Source of the DNA: a virus
DNA: 49,848 nucleotides
Strand: one strand, 5' to 3'
Virus record (IMG/VR): IMGVR_UViG_3300032157_000014
Coordinates: 1-49,848 of that record
The position numbers and the translations under genes were made by a program. Position 1 is the stretch's first letter; each line of letters opens with the position of its first letter. The notes under the pieces are model-generated. The model was given only the letters and a program-made list of their open reading frames with translations, searched no databases and had not been told where the DNA came from. Positions 6,420 through 25,793 of this stretch are shown here, piece by piece.

Positions 6420-6764
6420 TCAGCGCCGGCGCCGCGGCGGCCGCTTAGCGTTGGCGTGCTGCCAGCAGTTCATCTCGCACCACACCGTCGAATAGACCTT
6501 GCGCCGGTCCGGATCCGGGACCGCCGCCTTGAAGTTGTCGTAGTTGATCGCCATCGCATGCTCGAGCAGCGCGTCCGCGACCGCCTTCCTGGGCAGCTCG
6601 GCGCGGAAGAGGTAGTCCGCGGCCGGCGTCCGCTTCACCTTCACCGCCAGGTGCGGGAAGGCCCGCTCGATATCGCCGGCCAGCCGCGCCCTCACCAGGA
6701 GGGTGTCACGCTTGTCCCGATGGGCTACGATGGACAGGAAGGCCTCCCGCAGGTAGATCCACAT
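6420..6764 (-). CDS. Hypothetical protein (114 aa), first gene of the late/packaging block
   Basis: Normal composition: MWIYLREAFLSIVAHRDKRDTLLVRARLAGDIERAF.... Basic C-terminus. Its ATG shares one base with the stop of the recombinase-remnant frame. Confidence 0.6.
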   Translation of the reverse strand: MWIYLREAFLSIVAHRDKRDTLLVRARLAGDIERAFPHLAVKVKRTPAADYLFRAELPRKAVADALLEHAMAINYDNFKAAVPDPDRRKVYSTVWCEMNCWQHANAKRPPRRRR

Positions 6765-6844
6765 CAGGCGGCCCTCCGCCAGTACGCCTCTGGCAGCGCG
6801 ATTTGGAGCTGAACGGTTCTAAGGTTGCCCAGGTCAGGGAGCCA
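6764..6844 (-). pseudogene. Orphan 3'-end remnant of a serine-recombinase gene (diverged copy of 7603..7683)
   Basis: Minus-strand translation is WLPDLGNLRTVQLQIALPEAYWRRAA*, against the intact gene's C-terminus WLPELGNLRTVRLEVDLPEDYWRRAA*. About 70 of 81 nt are identical, and homology ends abruptly at 6845. Confidence 0.75.
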
Positions 6845-6924
6845 CAAAAAATTCCGAAATAAGAACAGTGGCTTACAAAAGTCGCAAAATTTCATCGTTC
6901 ACATCTCTTTGAGTTGCAGTAGCT

Positions 6925-6950
6925 TTTGGTTCGAGTCCAGTTCGGGCTCA
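6925..6950 (+). other. tRNA 3'-end-like fragment (T-arm plus acceptor 3' strand); not an intact tRNA
   Basis: tttGGTTCGAGTCCagttcgggctca contains the canonical GGTTCGAGTCC T-stem/T-loop block. No complementary 5' acceptor strand is found about 70 nt upstream. Confidence 0.45.
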
Positions 6951-6954
6951 ATCA

Positions 6955-7194
6955 ATGGCACGCACCTCGAAAAAGCACAAGACAGCTTCCAAGCCGAAAA
7001 CGCGCATCGGCATTGGCACGCGTCGCATCCTCGTTATGAAGGTGGTCGAGCTCGGTGTGCCAGATCCGAAACGGGTCGCGCGTGCGTTTGTCGAGATTTT
7101 CAGGCCCGAAATCGAGAAGTGGCGTTACAGGTTTCACAATAAGAAAGCCGAAGCGAAGGCTCGGAAAAATCGCCGCAGAAAGCGCTCTACATAG
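6955..7194 (+). CDS. Basic small protein (79 aa) sharing a FRPEIE motif with the early 65-aa ORF at 25103..25300
   Basis: MARTSKKHKTASKPK...VPDPKRVARAFVEIFRPEIEKWRYRF...RKNRRRKRST, compared with ...VPGGFARDFCQIFRPEIESRF... in the 25103..25300 product. Confidence 0.5.
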   Translation: MARTSKKHKTASKPKTRIGIGTRRILVMKVVELGVPDPKRVARAFVEIFRPEIEKWRYRFHNKKAEAKARKNRRRKRST

Positions 7195-7263
7195 CGCCGT
7201 TGCTGGACACCGACCACAAGTGTCAACTATAAAGTCAACTAATACACGTTAGGCTCGTTACCC

Positions 7264-7587
7264 GTGGGATCCGTCGATCTTCGCTTTCTACCGCTGACGC
7301 TTTTGGCGATTTGTAGCGCATGGGTCGCGCCCGTTATTCTTGCTTGGGCCGTTGGGCTCGTTTTTCTCCCTGCCCGGCGGCGATATGCAATGTTTGTTCT
7401 GCGTTACGGCCTACTCGGTGGCGTTTTGGGCTTGTTGCTACTCGTGGTGCTTATGCACGCGTTTGGAACCTCTGGGGTGACTCCGGCGGGCCTTGCTTGG
7501 CTATTTTTCTTTGCTATGGGGTTCGGCTTTGTTGGCGTCGTAGTCGCGATTGTCGGGCTGTTCTCACGATGGCAAGCTGAACGTTAG
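7264..7587 (+). CDS. Integral membrane protein (107 aa, about 3-4 TM segments)
   Basis: GTG start. Hydrophobic stretches LTLLAICSAWVAPVILAWAVGLVFL, LLGGVLGLLLLVVLMHAF and LAWLFFFAMGFGFVGVVVAIVGLF. Confidence 0.55.
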   Translation: MGSVDLRFLPLTLLAICSAWVAPVILAWAVGLVFLPARRRYAMFVLRYGLLGGVLGLLLLVVLMHAFGTSGVTPAGLAWLFFFAMGFGFVGVVVAIVGLFSRWQAER

Positions 7588-7602
7588 AGGCTCGAGTCCC
7601 GT

Positions 7603-7683
7603 TCAGGCGGCCCTCCGCCAGTAGTCCTCTGGCAGATCAACTTCGAGCCGAACGGTTCTAAGGTTGCCCAGTTCGGGGAGCCA
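7603..7683. repeat. 81-bp direct repeat copy B (functional 3' end of the serine recombinase)
   Basis: Aligns with 6764..6844: tcaggcggccctccgccagta..cctctggcag......gaacggttctaaggttgcccag...agcca. Confidence 0.8.
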
Positions 7684-9273
7684 ACTCGTAGAGCTGCGAA
7701 CCACCTGCAGCGGCCGCGCGTCGACGAGGCGCGAAGGGTTGTAGTGGATCGTCGCTCCAGCGTCTTCGAGAACCACGCGCTCGATAAACGTCCCGAGGAA
7801 CTCGCGCACCTTCTTCGGATCTCCGCACTCGATCGACTCTTTTACAAATCCTTCCACCTGGGCAAGCGTCGCTTCGTCCAGGCAGGCTTGGGGCGCCGGC
7901 ATCGCTTCCAGCTCAGAGAGACTCTCCTCGAGCTGCTTGACTTGGGCGTTGAGTTCGCGCAGCCGCACCGTCAGATCTCCCAGGTTCGGCGCCCCGCGGC
8001 CGTGCTCTTCCAGGACGTCGAACACGTTCCGGCGCCGCCGCTCGGCGTCTCGCAGATCGTTGACGAGGGCGACTCGCCGCGTCGCCCGATCACGTACCCA
8101 GGACCCGCTGAGCTCGTGCATCTGCCTGGTGATGTCGGCTATTCGCTCCCTGGTCAGGATCCGCTCTTTGATCGGCGTCATCAACCAGGCGTCGAGGTTG
8201 TCGGCGGGGATCATCCTGCTGGCGCACCCGGATCCGCGGTTCGACCCGCCGCAGTTGTAGTAGCTGTACGTCTTTCGCTTCCTGCCGGTACCCGTCTGGA
8301 TCACGAGGCACTTGTTGCACGCGCCACACCGCAGCAGTCCGGTGAACAGGTGGGTGCTCAGGGCATGGCCATTCCCCTCGACGGGAGCGCGGCCAGCGAT
8401 GAGTTTCTGTACTGACATGAAATTCTCCTCAGAAATGATCGGCGCGTGGCTCAGTGTCCGGATCCAGTCTGCTTCCGGGCGCTCTTCACGTGTCGCGTGG
8501 TCGGTGCGGTTGAAGGTGGTGTAGCCGCAGTACGTCCAGTTGCGAAGTAGATTCAGGATCGTGTTCTTCGTCCACGTGGCCCCCCGCCGGCGCAGGCCTG
8601 CGCGATTGAGGCGGACAGCTATGTTTTTCACCCCGGATCCGGCGAGGGAGCGCGCGAAGATGTCCCGCACGATCATGGCCTCCGCTTCCACTATCGCGAG
8701 CCGCCGGCGCTTGCCGACAGGCACCGACTCGTAGCCGAACGGCACGCGGCCGCCGTTGAAGAAGCCGTCGCGCGCATTCTTCAGCAGCGATCGCCGCGTG
8801 TCCTTGCTGACCGTCCGGCTGTACTGCTCGTCCATCATCTCGAACATCTTCTCGAGCAGCCAGCCCTCGTCGGTGCCCGTGTTTATGTTCTGCGAGACGT
8901 AGATCATTTCGGTGCCACCGCGGCGCAGGTTGTGCTTCGTCCAGGCGGCGACCGCGCTGCTGCGGCTGAAGCGGGCCGTGTTCCAGAGGATGAAGTAGTC
9001 GATGTCGGCGATCCCGCAGTAGTCGACGGCCTCGTCGAACACGTCTCGCTTGACCTTGCGGCCGGAGACGCCTTCCTCCGTGAAGATCTTCACCACCGTC
9101 GCGCTGAGTTCCTCGGCCTTCCGCCTGCAGGCCTCGATCTGGCCGTCGATCGGGAGCTCCTCCTCGGCCTGGCCAGCCGTGCTGACGCGCGCGAGGATGA
9201 TCGCCTTTTTCACCGCGGCCACTCTACGATCTCCCGCCGAGCCGGTATATGTGACGTCGGGAGACTTTCTCAC
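7603..9273 (-). CDS. Large serine recombinase (integrase)
   Basis: Resolvase-type N-terminus KKAIILARVSTAGQ containing the catalytic Ser. Recombinase domain, Zn-ribbon LLRCGACNKCL...YYNCGG, and a C-terminal coiled coil. The true start may be the GTG at 9222, just after the upstream stop at 9224. Confidence 0.85.
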   Translation of the reverse strand: MRKSPDVTYTGSAGDRRVAAVKKAIILARVSTAGQAEEELPIDGQIEACRRKAEELSATVVKIFTEEGVSGRKVKRDVFDEAVDYCGIADIDYFILWNTARFSRSSAVAAWTKHNLRRGGTEMIYVSQNINTGTDEGWLLEKMFEMMDEQYSRTVSKDTRRSLLKNARDGFFNGGRVPFGYESVPVGKRRRLAIVEAEAMIVRDIFARSLAGSGVKNIAVRLNRAGLRRRGATWTKNTILNLLRNWTYCGYTTFNRTDHATREERPEADWIRTLSHAPIISEENFMSVQKLIAGRAPVEGNGHALSTHLFTGLLRCGACNKCLVIQTGTGRKRKTYSYYNCGGSNRGSGCASRMIPADNLDAWLMTPIKERILTRERIADITRQMHELSGSWVRDRATRRVALVNDLRDAERRRRNVFDVLEEHGRGAPNLGDLTVRLRELNAQVKQLEESLSELEAMPAPQACLDEATLAQVEGFVKESIECGDPKKVREFLGTFIERVVLEDAGATIHYNPSRLVDARPLQVVRSSTSWLPELGNLRTVRLEVDLPEDYWRRAA

Positions 9274-9721
9274 CTAACTCTGCCTTCATCCGCTCAAGGA
9301 TCTCGGTCACGCTCTTGCCCTCGGCCATGAGCGACTCGATGAACCGATTGCGCTGGAAGCGCAGATACGAGCGGTAGGAGCGCATCCGCACCTCGAGATC
9401 TCCCTTGTCCGTGCGGCACGCTGGATCCTGGTCGTAGATGCGCCACGCGAGCATGAAGTTGTCGAAGCCGATCGCCTCCGCCACGAGCAGCTGAGTGCGC
9501 GACAGCCCCATGCGCGCGAGTTCGTCGAGGCGCGAATCGCGATCGGCGGCGACGCGCAAATGCGACGTAGGAGTAGAGCGACCATCTTGGTACCCACCCC
9601 CCCCTGGAGCCAGGCCGGCCGGCGCCTGCCGACCCCCCAGGCCAGGCGCCAGGATCTCCGCGGCGGCCGATCGAGGCACAGCTCCAGGTGTCGAGTTGCG
9701 CTTTTGAGCCGGTGACGGCAT
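9224..9721 (-). CDS. HTH protein upstream of the serine recombinase (possible regulator or directionality factor); start uncertain
   Basis: The C-terminal half has normal composition: ...LDELARMGLSRTQLLVAEAIGFDNFML...AEGKSVTEILERMKAELGEKVSRRHIYRL, a resolvase/Psq-like HTH. The N-terminal 60 aa are low-complexity, so an alternative start is the Met at 9511. Confidence 0.4.
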   Translation of the reverse strand: MPSPAQKRNSTPGAVPRSAAAEILAPGLGGRQAPAGLAPGGGGYQDGRSTPTSHLRVAADRDSRLDELARMGLSRTQLLVAEAIGFDNFMLAWRIYDQDPACRTDKGDLEVRMRSYRSYLRFQRNRFIESLMAEGKSVTEILERMKAELGEKVSRRHIYRLGGRS

Positions 9722-9967: not shown

Positions 9968-11008
9968 CTACGCGGGGGAAGTCGGCTTGGAGGACTGCAG
10001 GCGCTTGAGCAGCTCGGTGACTGGCGTGCTCATCTTGGCGAGCGGATTTGCCCTGTCGACATCACGCACCAGCTTGCGAATGGCGACGCTGGTGTAGATC
10101 TCGGTGCTCTTCGGATCCTTGTGCCCCATGAGCTCCTGCGTCGAGCGTAGGTGGACGTCCGACTCGGTGAGCTCAGCGCCGTAAAGGTGACGCGCTGCGT
10201 GCGGGTGCAGCTGGTCGATCGGGATCCCGGCGCGGCGGCCGTACTTCCCCACCAGGTCGTTGATCGCGCGTCGATCGAGACGCCGGCGCTCGCCGCGGTA
10301 CTCTGATTTCTGCACGTTCCTATTCATCAGGCTGACGAAAAGAACGTGATCGCCACCGCTGATCTCCGTGTCGATTTCCTTCAGCGCGGGATGCTCGAGG
10401 TACACGCGCAGCATCAGATCCGCTTCCTGGGGAACCGGCACCATCCGCTCGCGATCGCCCTTCTCGATGACCTTGATGAAGATCCTCGGTCGACCTTCAA
10501 CCTTGTCCTCGATCAACGAGGATCTGTTCAGCCGCACCACGGCACTCACGCGCACACCGCAGCCGACCAGGATGGAAAGAATCGACGCGTCGCGCACACC
10601 CTCGAAGGTGTTCAGATCCGGCGCCCAGATCAGTTTTTCCGCGCTGGCCAGGCGCATCACGTGCGGCAGCCTGCGGCCGGTGCGCGGATGCTCGAGCAGC
10701 TCCGCCGGCGACGCGTCGACGTACTTCATCATCACCATCCAGCGGCCGAATTCCTTCACCGCTGACACCTGCGGCCTGCGCCCGCTGGGCGTGAGGCCTC
10801 GCTTGATCAGCCAGGGCCCGCTGAATGCCACCAGGTCCTCGAGCGTCGCGTCGCGCGGATCCCGGCCGTCCAGGAACTCGAGGAGGCGCTCGAGCGCCAG
10901 GCGGTAATTGCCGATCGTGCTCTTCGAGCGATTCTTGTTCGCGGCCTTGTAGCTCAGGAACGCAGTGACGAGCTCGACGCGGTTCATCGCGGGCTCCCCA
11001 ATCTGCAT
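9968..11008 (-). CDS. Tyrosine recombinase, XerC/XerD-like
   Basis: N-terminal SAM-like core-binding region (TIGNYRLALERLLEFL). Catalytic-domain motifs VRVSAVVRL, HPHAARHLYG and LMGHKDPKSTEIYT. An alternative start is the Met at 10987. Confidence 0.8.
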   Translation of the reverse strand: MQIGEPAMNRVELVTAFLSYKAANKNRSKSTIGNYRLALERLLEFLDGRDPRDATLEDLVAFSGPWLIKRGLTPSGRRPQVSAVKEFGRWMVMMKYVDASPAELLEHPRTGRRLPHVMRLASAEKLIWAPDLNTFEGVRDASILSILVGCGVRVSAVVRLNRSSLIEDKVEGRPRIFIKVIEKGDRERMVPVPQEADLMLRVYLEHPALKEIDTEISGGDHVLFVSLMNRNVQKSEYRGERRRLDRRAINDLVGKYGRRAGIPIDQLHPHAARHLYGAELTESDVHLRSTQELMGHKDPKSTEIYTSVAIRKLVRDVDRANPLAKMSTPVTELLKRLQSSKPTSPA

Positions 11009-24821: not shown

Positions 24822-25106
24822 TCACCGGCGCGCTTCATTGCCGCCTGCCGGTTTGTTTCCTTGTGCGTCCAGCCCCGCCGCCGTGCGCACCTTCGCCAGC
24901 AGCGTCTTCTCGCTGCGCGTCTTGCAGATCCGCATGCCGCGTCGGCTGTGGCCGTCGCGCCTGTAGAGCACGTAGGCCGGAACAAGCGTCTTGTTGCCCG
25001 TCTTGCGATCGCGCTTCTCGTCCTGGACGTCGATGTAGTAGAGCGTCGGGTGGTCCTTGCAGACCTGCCGCACTTCCCACAGCAGCTGATGCGGCAGCGG
25101 CTTCAC
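24822..25106 (-). CDS. Hypothetical protein (94 aa)
   Basis: MKPLPHQLLWEVRQVCKDHPTLYYIDVQDEKRDRKTGNKTLVPAYVLYRRDGH.... Confidence 0.5.
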   Translation of the reverse strand: MKPLPHQLLWEVRQVCKDHPTLYYIDVQDEKRDRKTGNKTLVPAYVLYRRDGHSRRGMRICKTRSEKTLLAKVRTAAGLDAQGNKPAGGNEARR

Positions 25107-25300
25107 TCGGAGGCCTTCGCCGGCGTGGCTGCCGGCGTGGTAAGGAAGCGCGATTCGATTTCGGGCCGGAAGATCTGGCAGAAGTCCCGGGCAAAGCCGC
25201 CGGGCACCTTGCCGGCGGGCAGCTGCTCGGTAACCTGCAGCGGCAGCCGCTGCGCGATCGTCTTGGCGTCAGCCACGCGCCAACCCCTTAACGCGCGCAT
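25103..25300 (-). CDS. Hypothetical small protein (65 aa or shorter) with a FRPEIE motif
   Basis: ...GKVPGGFARDFCQIFRPEIESRFLTT.... ATGA overlap with the downstream start. Its 5' end overlaps the upstream gene by 32 nt, so the real start may be internal. Confidence 0.4.
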   Translation of the reverse strand: MRALRGWRVADAKTIAQRLPLQVTEQLPAGKVPGGFARDFCQIFRPEIESRFLTTPAATPAKASE

Positions 25301-25793
25301 GCGCCTCGACGATCGCGCCGACCCATTCGAATACCTGCTTGTTCAGTTCGCCGAGCTCTCCGCGGTCGATCCGGCCGTCCTGCAGGCAATGGCGCAGGAG
25401 GTGGTGGTAGCTGCCGCCCTCCTCGTGCACCTTCGCCAAGAGCTCGAGCAGCGCTTCGTCGGAGCATTTGCTGAAATCGGGAACCGGGAAGGCCACGCAG
25501 TTCATGCCGCGCGCCTGGGCTTGCAGGTGTTCGATGCGGCCGGTCGCAAGGAAGATCAGCTGCATGTCCTGCACGGTCAGCTTGTGGTGCGGGGTGCCGT
25601 CGCCCTCGGCCAGCTTGTTGTAGAGGACCCCTGCCGACGTCCCGATCAGTTCAGCGACCTTGGGGATCCCCCCCTCGAATGCGTCGCAGATAGCCCGCGC
25701 GGCCGCGCGCGCATCGGCCGATGCCTGCATGTGTGAGGAAAAGCGATCGGCTAACTTTGCGTGAGCAGAGGGACGGCGCATGCTCTGGCTCAT
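25269..25793 (-). CDS. CII (CP76)-like phage regulatory protein
   Basis: ...VAELIGTSAGVLYNKLAEGDGTPHHKLTVQDMQLIFLATGRIEHLQAQARGMNCVAFPVP...GRIDRGELGELNKQV... resembles the Phage_CP76 pattern as I remember it. It is the second gene of the leftward early operon. Confidence 0.4.
   Translation of the reverse strand: MSQSMRRPSAHAKLADRFSSHMQASADARAAARAICDAFEGGIPKVAELIGTSAGVLYNKLAEGDGTPHHKLTVQDMQLIFLATGRIEHLQAQARGMNCVAFPVPDFSKCSDEALLELLAKVHEEGGSYHHLLRHCLQDGRIDRGELGELNKQVFEWVGAIVEAHARVKGLARG

Follow-up and report, generated by a model that had tools for sequence, protein, structure and literature searches.

Why should the 3′ end of a phage integrase gene be present twice, with DNA of foreign composition between the 2 copies? 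This question is raised by the IMG/VR virus record IMGVR_UViG_3300032157_000014, which we analyzed over its whole length of 49,848 nucleotides (hereafter the window). The window represents the circular genome of a temperate phage (its ends overlap by 127 bp, its GC content is approximately 66%, and phage head genes and 2 recombinase genes are present), in which the last codons of the gene for a large serine recombinase (LSR, the integrase) recur at the far side of a low-GC island. We propose that the repeated segment is one arm (P′) of the phage attachment site attP, which lies inside the integrase gene itself, and that this arm was probably doubled when the phage captured a small LSR-less element by site-specific recombination.

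Two copies of the integrase 3′ end around a low-GC island

A repeat search of the window returned one long direct repeat (81 nt, 88% identity, at 6764–6844 and 7603–7683). A preliminary description of this DNA, in which the copies had been aligned by hand, had reported about 70 identities in 81 and 2 in-frame copies ending in the same stop. Computational realignment gave 71 equal positions out of 81, with the similarity ending abruptly on both sides, and confirmed the frames: the minus strand encodes WLPDLGNLRTVQLQIALPEAYWRRAA and WLPELGNLRTVRLEVDLPEDYWRRAA, each followed by a stop and both ending in YWRRAA. The probability of at least 71 matches in 81 by chance is approximately 2e-24. The final 21 nt of the copies are identical, and their 10 differences fall in 7 codons, 6 of them variable in the family and 1 changed synonymously, with no conserved residue altered. 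Judged by its codons, this pattern would fit 2 tails that have each been under constraint, perhaps with some gene conversion, and not decay in place.

Direct copies that lie near each other could also have arisen by tandem duplication in place, with later divergence and an insertion, or from a chimeric assembly. We consider this very improbable. A Logan contig of SRR9694912 (1148 bp) is identical to window positions 6736–7883, which cover both copies, the island and both junctions, and this independent assembly indicates that the structure is not an artefact of one assembler. Moreover, the longest exact stretch common to the copies is just 22 nt, their differences spare the conserved codons, and the composition of the island is foreign (its GC of 0.529 compares with 0.658 genome-wide and is lower than in any other of 982 windows of equal size).

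While the copy at 7603–7683 ends the LSR gene, the copy at 6764–6844 is an orphan. Its TGA (6764–6766) overlaps the ATG of an open reading frame (ORF) of 114 amino acids (6420–6764), an overlap already seen in the preliminary description, which had deduced from it an ancestral layout with the recombinase gene translationally coupled to this ORF. Exactly such a junction is present in the closest relative (L010, LSR 78% identical), where no island occurs, the LSR stop overlaps the ATG of a 111-amino acid gene and the junction sequence (GCCGCCTGATGTGG) is the same as at the orphan copy of the window. The island is therefore not universal among the relatives checked. Homologues of the 114-amino acid protein sit in diverse phage contexts that are, with the exception of L010, uninformative. 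The island had been described as a low-GC segment of about 760 bp with a basic 79-amino acid protein (p79), a 107-amino acid protein with several transmembrane (TM) segments and a tRNA fragment. Its measured length is 758 bp, and the fragment (6927–6946) is identical at 19 of 20 positions to the 3′ halves of real asparagine tRNA (tRNA-Asn) genes.

The attachment site and the two integrase tails

What kind of sequence is repeated became apparent from the relatives of the integrase. A search returned approximately 120 LSR homologues (41–78% identity), all of which share the motif HS..NWLP(D/E) followed by one of 2 tails: type A, of approximately 25–26 residues with the pattern L(R/G)T......LP.RF.RRAA before the stop, or type B, which reads LGSNQGP(A/T)D before the stop. 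A Propionivibrio chromosome shows the type B tail to be antisense tRNA-Asn(GTT): the antisense stretch covers the last 42 nt of the LSR gene, the Trp codon TGG is complementary to the CCA end of the tRNA, and the stop TAA is complementary to a portion of its anticodon loop. We surveyed the tails in 80 viral-contig loci and 3 others. Type B was found in 37 loci, 20 of which stop exactly at the LSR stop codon, the others continuing into the tRNA gene; type A was found in approximately 46 loci, mostly internal to phage-size contigs. At the far end of 6 proviruses with a type B tail, the hairpin of a host terminator is followed by TGGCTCCCCG and by an orphan type A tail with its stop, an arrangement that represents attL; their other end consists of P, core and tRNA. 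The existence of 2 tail classes, together with the orphan type A tails at the far ends, indicates that the phage integrates within the final codons of the LSR gene. Type A correlates with the excised phage and type B with the integrated prophage: as read from these loci, integration swaps the type A tail for a tRNA-encoded one, and the type A tail stays at the far end of the prophage. Tails of the excised form end in AA in 72 of 78 cases and those of the integrated form in D in all 26 (loci L011 and L013–L092; proteins P0031–P0150), and integration may switch the stability or the activity of the integrase through its C-terminus.

Two further observations concern these loci. In a 42-kb metagenome contig (L034 and L106, IMGVR_UViG_3300048592_001399), the same LSR 3′ end has a tRNA-encoded tail at one end of the contig and an RRAA-type tail at the other, and the assembly appears to have caught integrated and excised forms together. 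In some hosts the tRNA-Asn genes form tandem arrays of 2–5 copies, the outermost of which is occupied by the prophage (L033, 6537–6830; L275, 4523–5070; L049, L055 and L056). Such arrays offer several adjacent attB sites, which would favor tandem integrations.

The anatomy of the att sites is well supported at the level of the family. From 52 distinct sites we derived the attP consensus GGTTCatAG, 10 nt, TGGCTCCCCG, 11 nt, CTgcGAACC, in which the outer 9-mers are mutual reverse complements and both lie 16–24 bp from the center of the dyad; the best center is 5 nt past the T of TGG, within the invariant core. In the 37 integrated relatives, the right arm is the T arm of the tRNA, with GCTCGAACC at 11–19 bp, and its TCGAACC end is 5 nt nearer the center than in P′. 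The natural left (B) arms show no clear motif and are not conserved; they consist of a short spacer followed by the terminator of the tRNA. For A118-type integrases, the zinc-ribbon motif lies 5 bp further inward in attB than in the attP half-sites (PMC3783163). This match to the serine-integrase rule would support the LSR, rather than a tyrosine recombinase, as the acting enzyme.

Applied to the window, this geometry identifies the repeat as the predicted P′ arm of the LSR attP, running from TGG (the mirror of the tRNA CCA end) to the LSR stop, and its left edge at TGG would accordingly be the end of the tRNA mimic and not an arbitrary breakpoint. That the 3′ end of the recombinase gene is the phage attachment site had been missed in the preliminary description. 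Two sites are present (Table 1), which share core and P′ arm, are in direct orientation and bound the island. Site 1 fits the 52-site consensus. Site 2 (6815–6870 including its left arm) differs from it in core and P′ by a single C-to-T change, 3 bases from the center, and carries a left arm not related to the P arm. We classify site 2 as attL-type because this left arm resembles the flank downstream of a tRNA, as natural B arms do. Terminal-repeat cases aside, no second P′ site without a P arm was found inside related phage genomes (approximately 80 LSR loci and the listed loci of 95 viral-contig matches to the P′ pattern). A transposon target-site duplication was also considered and is ruled out by the length and identity of the repeat (81 bp at 88%), by differences confined to variable codons, and by the lack of a transposase or terminal inverted repeats in the island. 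The earlier view that no fresh target-site duplication is involved is supported.

Table 1. Position of the features discussed in the text, in window coordinates.
Feature	Coordinates	Strand	Description
LSR (integrase) gene	7603–9222	−	539 amino acids from GTG 9222; last 26 codons in repeat copy 1
Repeat copy 1	7603–7683	−	P′ arm and LSR tail in use (WLPELGNLRTVRLEVDLPEDYWRRAA, stop); probably arrived with the island
Repeat copy 2	6764–6844	−	Apparently the original P′ arm of the phage, with orphaned LSR tail; stop overlaps ATG of the 114-amino acid gene
Site 1, complete attP	7654–7702	−	GGTTCGCAG-N10-TGGCTCCCCG-N11-CTTAGAACC; dyad center near 7678
Site 2, core and P′ arm	6815–6844	−	TGGCTCCCTGACCTGGGCAACCTTAGAACC; no P arm; attL-type
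Island	6845–7602	+	758 bp; no recombinase gene; oriented in the tRNA sense
Island arm beside site 2 core	6845–6885	+	CCA, 23-nt spacer, weak hairpin (GTGGCTTAC-AAAA-GTCGC); build of tRNA-downstream DNA (B-arm-like)
tRNA-Asn 3′-half relic	6927–6946	+	T arm and acceptor strand, TGGTTCGAGTCCAGTTCGGG; 8 nt before the p79 ATG
p79	6955–7194	+	Small basic protein, 79 amino acids
Multi-TM ORF	7264–7587	+	107 amino acids from GTG, or 65 from ATG 7390; orphan cargo gene
114-amino acid gene	6420–6764	−	First gene downstream of the ancestral attP; 52% identical to the 111-amino acid gene of L010
Native p79 paralogue	25103–25300	−	65 amino acids (FARDFCQIFRPEIE); directly downstream of the CII-like activator gene (25269–25793)

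LSR-less elements beside tRNA-Asn genes and the probable capture of the island

We scanned bacterial genomes for P′ sites by pattern; the matches were filtered by script, and those listed include many chance or other-subfamily matches. Among the matches listed, several attL-type sites lie 1.5–3.6 kb from a tRNA-Asn site, and the interval contains no LSR gene. In a gammaproteobacterial metagenome-assembled genome (MAG; L190), a 1.5-kb element is composed of terminator, core, P′, TehB gene, small basic gene, terminator-like arm and a complete tRNA-Asn gene, and Collimonas rhizosphaerae (L254) carries a 3.4-kb low-GC element with the same layout beside a 46-nt tRNA-Asn 3′ fragment. In both, the P′ arm of the chromosomal element is at the position matching repeat copy 1, and the small basic gene is oriented and placed as p79 is, approximately 95 nt from the tRNA-proximal core. 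The 2 small proteins share the motif (A/E)(F/I)FVQ(I/L)FRK.IEK, the counterpart of which in p79 is ARAFVEIFRPEIEK. Scored with the L190 and L254 profile, p79 reaches 16 bits, and with a four-sequence profile built without p79 it reaches 36 bits, whereas the highest score among 500 shuffles is 6 bits. BLASTP pairs L190 with L254 (6e-10), and p79 with a phage copy at L125 (4e-9). L254 also contains the same tRNA relic right before the ATG of the small gene (21 of 23 positions identical, z = 8.6), and its arm beside the core, the hairpin of which is a strong terminator, is identical to that of the window at approximately 16 of 19 positions at equal distance from CCA (manual count). Since the p79 family, the relic and the flanking sites are shared, the island belongs to a small family of tRNA-Asn-associated LSR-less elements that have sites of this LSR family at their boundaries.

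Other matches of the scan are of a different kind. The 8000-bp genome locus L275 contains a decayed prophage with an attL-type site 2.9 kb from a tRNA-Asn array, a truncated LSR gene that keeps the P arm, and terminase-like fragments; in contrast to it, the arm of the LSR-less elements is not LSR-derived. Among the matches listed, many Acidobacteriota and other MAGs have a distinct P′-like site, TGGCTCCCCGAGCTGTACGATTTGCGAACC, with tails like WLPELYDLRTFRF and no P arm (L192, L197, L204, L209, L237, L252, L260, L263, L269, L273, L280, L283, L289, L303 and others). L283 has 3 such sites within 3.5 kb. These sites probably belong to a further subfamily of this integrase system, and some may be tandem relics.

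We consider it probable, on balance, that the repeat was doubled by site-specific capture of a CIME-like element (CIME, cis-mobilizable element) through accretion and outer-site excision. The P′ arm would be present twice because a small LSR-less element, made up of the 758-bp island and one P′ arm, joined the phage at the att core; with the repeat identified as an att P′ arm, the copies would be arms from 2 elements, the phage and the captured element, and not a duplication that diverged later. The element would have resided beside a tRNA-Asn gene, with an attL-type site (host arm, core, P′1) as one boundary and the tRNA as the other. The ancestral phage, with an attP composed of P, core and P′2 followed by the 114-amino acid gene, would have integrated into the tRNA-proximal site of the element (attP with a B-like site). 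Excision would then have occurred between the outer attL of the element and the attR of the phage, and not through the phage's own attL. The resulting circle would read LSR/P, core, P′1, island, arm, core, P′2, 114-amino acid gene, with the LSR ending in a tail supplied by the element (its last 26 amino acids) and the phage's own tail orphaned yet coupled to the 114-amino acid gene. We infer the order of events and the partner of each copy: the coupling to the 114-amino acid gene and the layout of L010 point to copy 2 as the phage's original arm, and the position of P′ in L190 and L254 points to copy 1 as the arm of the element. Serine integrases have been reported to recombine attP with attB and attL with attR only (PMC3783163). 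By these canonical rules a reaction between site 1 (P-type) and site 2 (L-type) is barred, and the phage is thus predicted to retain the island stably. Following a further integration, its prophage could excise through site 2, which would leave the island beside the tRNA-Asn of the new host, as in L190. Of the 2 origins suggested in the preliminary description, insertion of a small element at the 3′ end of the recombinase gene came close to this pathway. The other, recombination with a related phage, is disfavored in the form of ordinary homologous exchange by the homology stopping exactly at the att core and by an arm at site 2 that looks like the flank of a tRNA and not like phage DNA.

The same final topology would be reached if a small circle of the element (arm, core, P′1) had been put by the LSR straight into the phage attP during infection, bypassing any tandem intermediate in a chromosome, and this would fit both the existence of the element family and the exactness of the junction at the core. 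We hold such a direct integration to be unlikely: both sites would have had P′-type right arms, a pairing that serine integrases reportedly do not recombine (PMC3783163), and no circular form of the element was seen. Another possibility is ordinary acquisition of a moron, in which a related phage or prophage would have given the island and its LSR 3′ end by homologous recombination in the LSR gene and an illegitimate join immediately upstream of the tail of the recipient, without involvement of the att site. Phage mosaicism is common, the tails could support homologous exchange at their 88% identity, and p79 paralogues occur in phages. In this scenario, however, the illegitimate join would need to hit the TGG/CCA boundary of the att core exactly. 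The arm of site 2 is tRNA-flank-like and matches the Collimonas element at equal distance from the core, homologous elements adjoin tRNA-Asn with the same kind of flanking sites, and the other related phage loci examined have neither such an island nor a P-arm-less second P′ site. Acquisition of this kind is therefore quite improbable.

Several points weigh against the capture pathway. It needs a reaction between the phage attP and a site in which the left arm belongs to the element, which seems plausible from the sequences because natural B arms are not conserved. At L254, a tRNA fragment of 46 nt stands in place of a whole gene as the tRNA-proximal site. The element family is known from 3 examples among the matches listed, and the similarity of p79 to its relatives is modest (16–36 bits). 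No chromosomal copy of this island and no island-minus variant of this phage were found, the ORFs of the island are orphans, and a search for the exact sequence of a hypothetical LSR without the island (its body joined to the orphan tail) gave no match. The tail in use is nearer to that of L010 (65/81 nt, 21/26 amino acids) than the orphan tail is (61/81 nt, 18/26 amino acids; amino acids by manual comparison), and could be taken as the native one. Finally, the conserved tyrosine recombinase encoded upstream of the LSR (9968–11008) may also take part.

This XerC-like recombinase gene (minus strand) lies just upstream of the LSR gene and of an ORF of 165 amino acids without a known family (9224–9721, minus strand), which is translationally coupled to the LSR start (GTG 9222). 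The module of LSR, 165-amino acid protein and tyrosine recombinase is conserved in L001, L010, L011 and L012. The LSR is identical to protein P0031, contains the Pfam domains Resolvase, Recombinase and Zn_ribbon_recom (E-values of 1e-22, 2e-22 and 9e-10, respectively, on 7603–9273), and is also assigned to a PHROG integrase family. BLAST of the whole LSR region against phage and plasmid collections yielded an unrelated 170-nt match only.

Neither ORF of the island has a recombinase domain. BLAST of the island DNA against phage and plasmid collections gave no match, and searches for p79 in 5.8 billion proteins and for the multi-TM ORF in 1.84 billion representatives returned self-matches only, with no Pfam or PHROG family for either. 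The structure of p79 was predicted with low confidence (pLDDT 66, pTM 0.29). In addition to the 65-amino acid native paralogue in the window (Table 1), a third copy of the p79 family is found at L125 (5519–5710) in a two-gene cassette between head genes, and the p79 gene family looks mobile; scans of viral and metagenome contigs with the family alignment detected only the already-known contig L125. ARAGORN and Rfam, at gathering and permissive thresholds, called no tRNA or RNA family in this region of the window. We considered 6865–6952 as a degenerate complete second tRNA-Asn gene and rejected it, as the support ends at the 3′ relic. A second T-arm-like motif (GGCTCGAGTCCCGTTCAGG, 7589–7609, plus strand) overlaps the LSR stop and resembles the relic at 15 of 20 positions; it is missing at the equivalent place in L190 and L254 and is partly explained by the conserved tail codons.

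Significance and comparison with known systems

Accretion, cis-mobilization, replacement 3′ ends and integration-dependent switching of a C-terminus are known ideas. We found no paper on a serine integrase with tRNA-Asn as its target, nor on a family of such integrases in which attP is located within the 3′ end of the integrase gene, nor on a phage in which a captured element provides the C-terminus of the phage integrase. Sequence alone defines attP, attB, attL and attR for a large, apparently undescribed group of tRNA-Asn-targeting serine integrases in Proteobacteria; the half-site geometry matches the structural model, and the att sites are useful for integrase tool mining. If correct, the capture pathway offers a concrete site-specific route by which temperate phages could gain cargo at attP. 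The junctions would be clean and no phage genes would be lost, and the resulting arrangement of 3 sites predicts a way for the cargo to be dropped in the next host. The analysis also raises the testable idea that integration switches the C-terminus of the integrase. In a speculative extension, which we regard as rather doubtful, the integrase would be rewired by its own reaction, with the RRAA tail (a possible ClpX-type degron) swapped for the GPAD tail as a sensor of the integration state, the tRNA-Asn elements would be dedicated hitchhikers that bring a working P′ arm and a tail keeping the phage viable, and their conserved p79-family protein would be a mobilization or directionality factor. 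If so, the window would show the phage-borne transit stage of such a hitchhiker.

In the classical account of cargo at the side of an att site, that of lambda gal and lambda bio, DNA beside the prophage att site enters the phage genome next to attP. Lambda transducing phages arise by illegitimate excision with loss of phage genes from the other end, whereas here both junctions are at att cores and there is no apparent loss. The closest parallel in mechanism would be the accretion and mobilization of CIMEs by integrative and conjugative elements (ICEs), as with ICESt1 and ICESt3 of Streptococcus thermophilus (reviewed in PMC5704250, citing Pavlovic 2004 and Bellanger 2011). In the CIME scheme, and likewise in the pathway proposed here, an integrase-less element keeps its att sites, an incoming autonomous element integrates in one of them, and excision through the outer sites moves both (PMC5704250), and the outcome is 3 att-type sites in direct orientation. 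Here, however, the vehicle would be a phage, the enzyme an LSR and the target tRNA-Asn, and the captured element would provide the coding 3′ end of the vehicle's integrase. CIMEs are moreover defined as decayed ICEs or integrative and mobilizable elements (IMEs), whereas the arm of the window element has no trace of an integrase gene, though p79 has phage paralogues.

With regard to the att sites, the Listeria A118/LI integrase similarly acts on a dyad site of approximately 50 bp, with outer motifs at 16–24 bp in attP and 5 bp further inward in attB (PMC3783163). The system described here differs in that the right half of attB is the T arm of tRNA-Asn and attP overlaps the last codons of the integrase itself. 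As in the mycobacteriophage BPs, attP lies inside an ORF, so that the phage and prophage forms of the protein differ at their C-terminus (PMC4557955). In BPs the switched protein is the repressor, the viral form of which carries an ssrA-like degradation tag (PMC4557955), and the integrase is a tyrosine recombinase, whereas here the integrase itself is switched. The AA and D endings of the 2 integrase tails recall the logic of this tag, a hypothesis drawn from the analogy. Finally, tRNA-targeting islands bring a replacement 3′ end for their target gene, which is kept intact in this way, the displaced original end being found at the far side of the island (PMC12884075). In the window, by contrast, the restored gene encodes the phage integrase, and the element that restores it carries no integrase gene.

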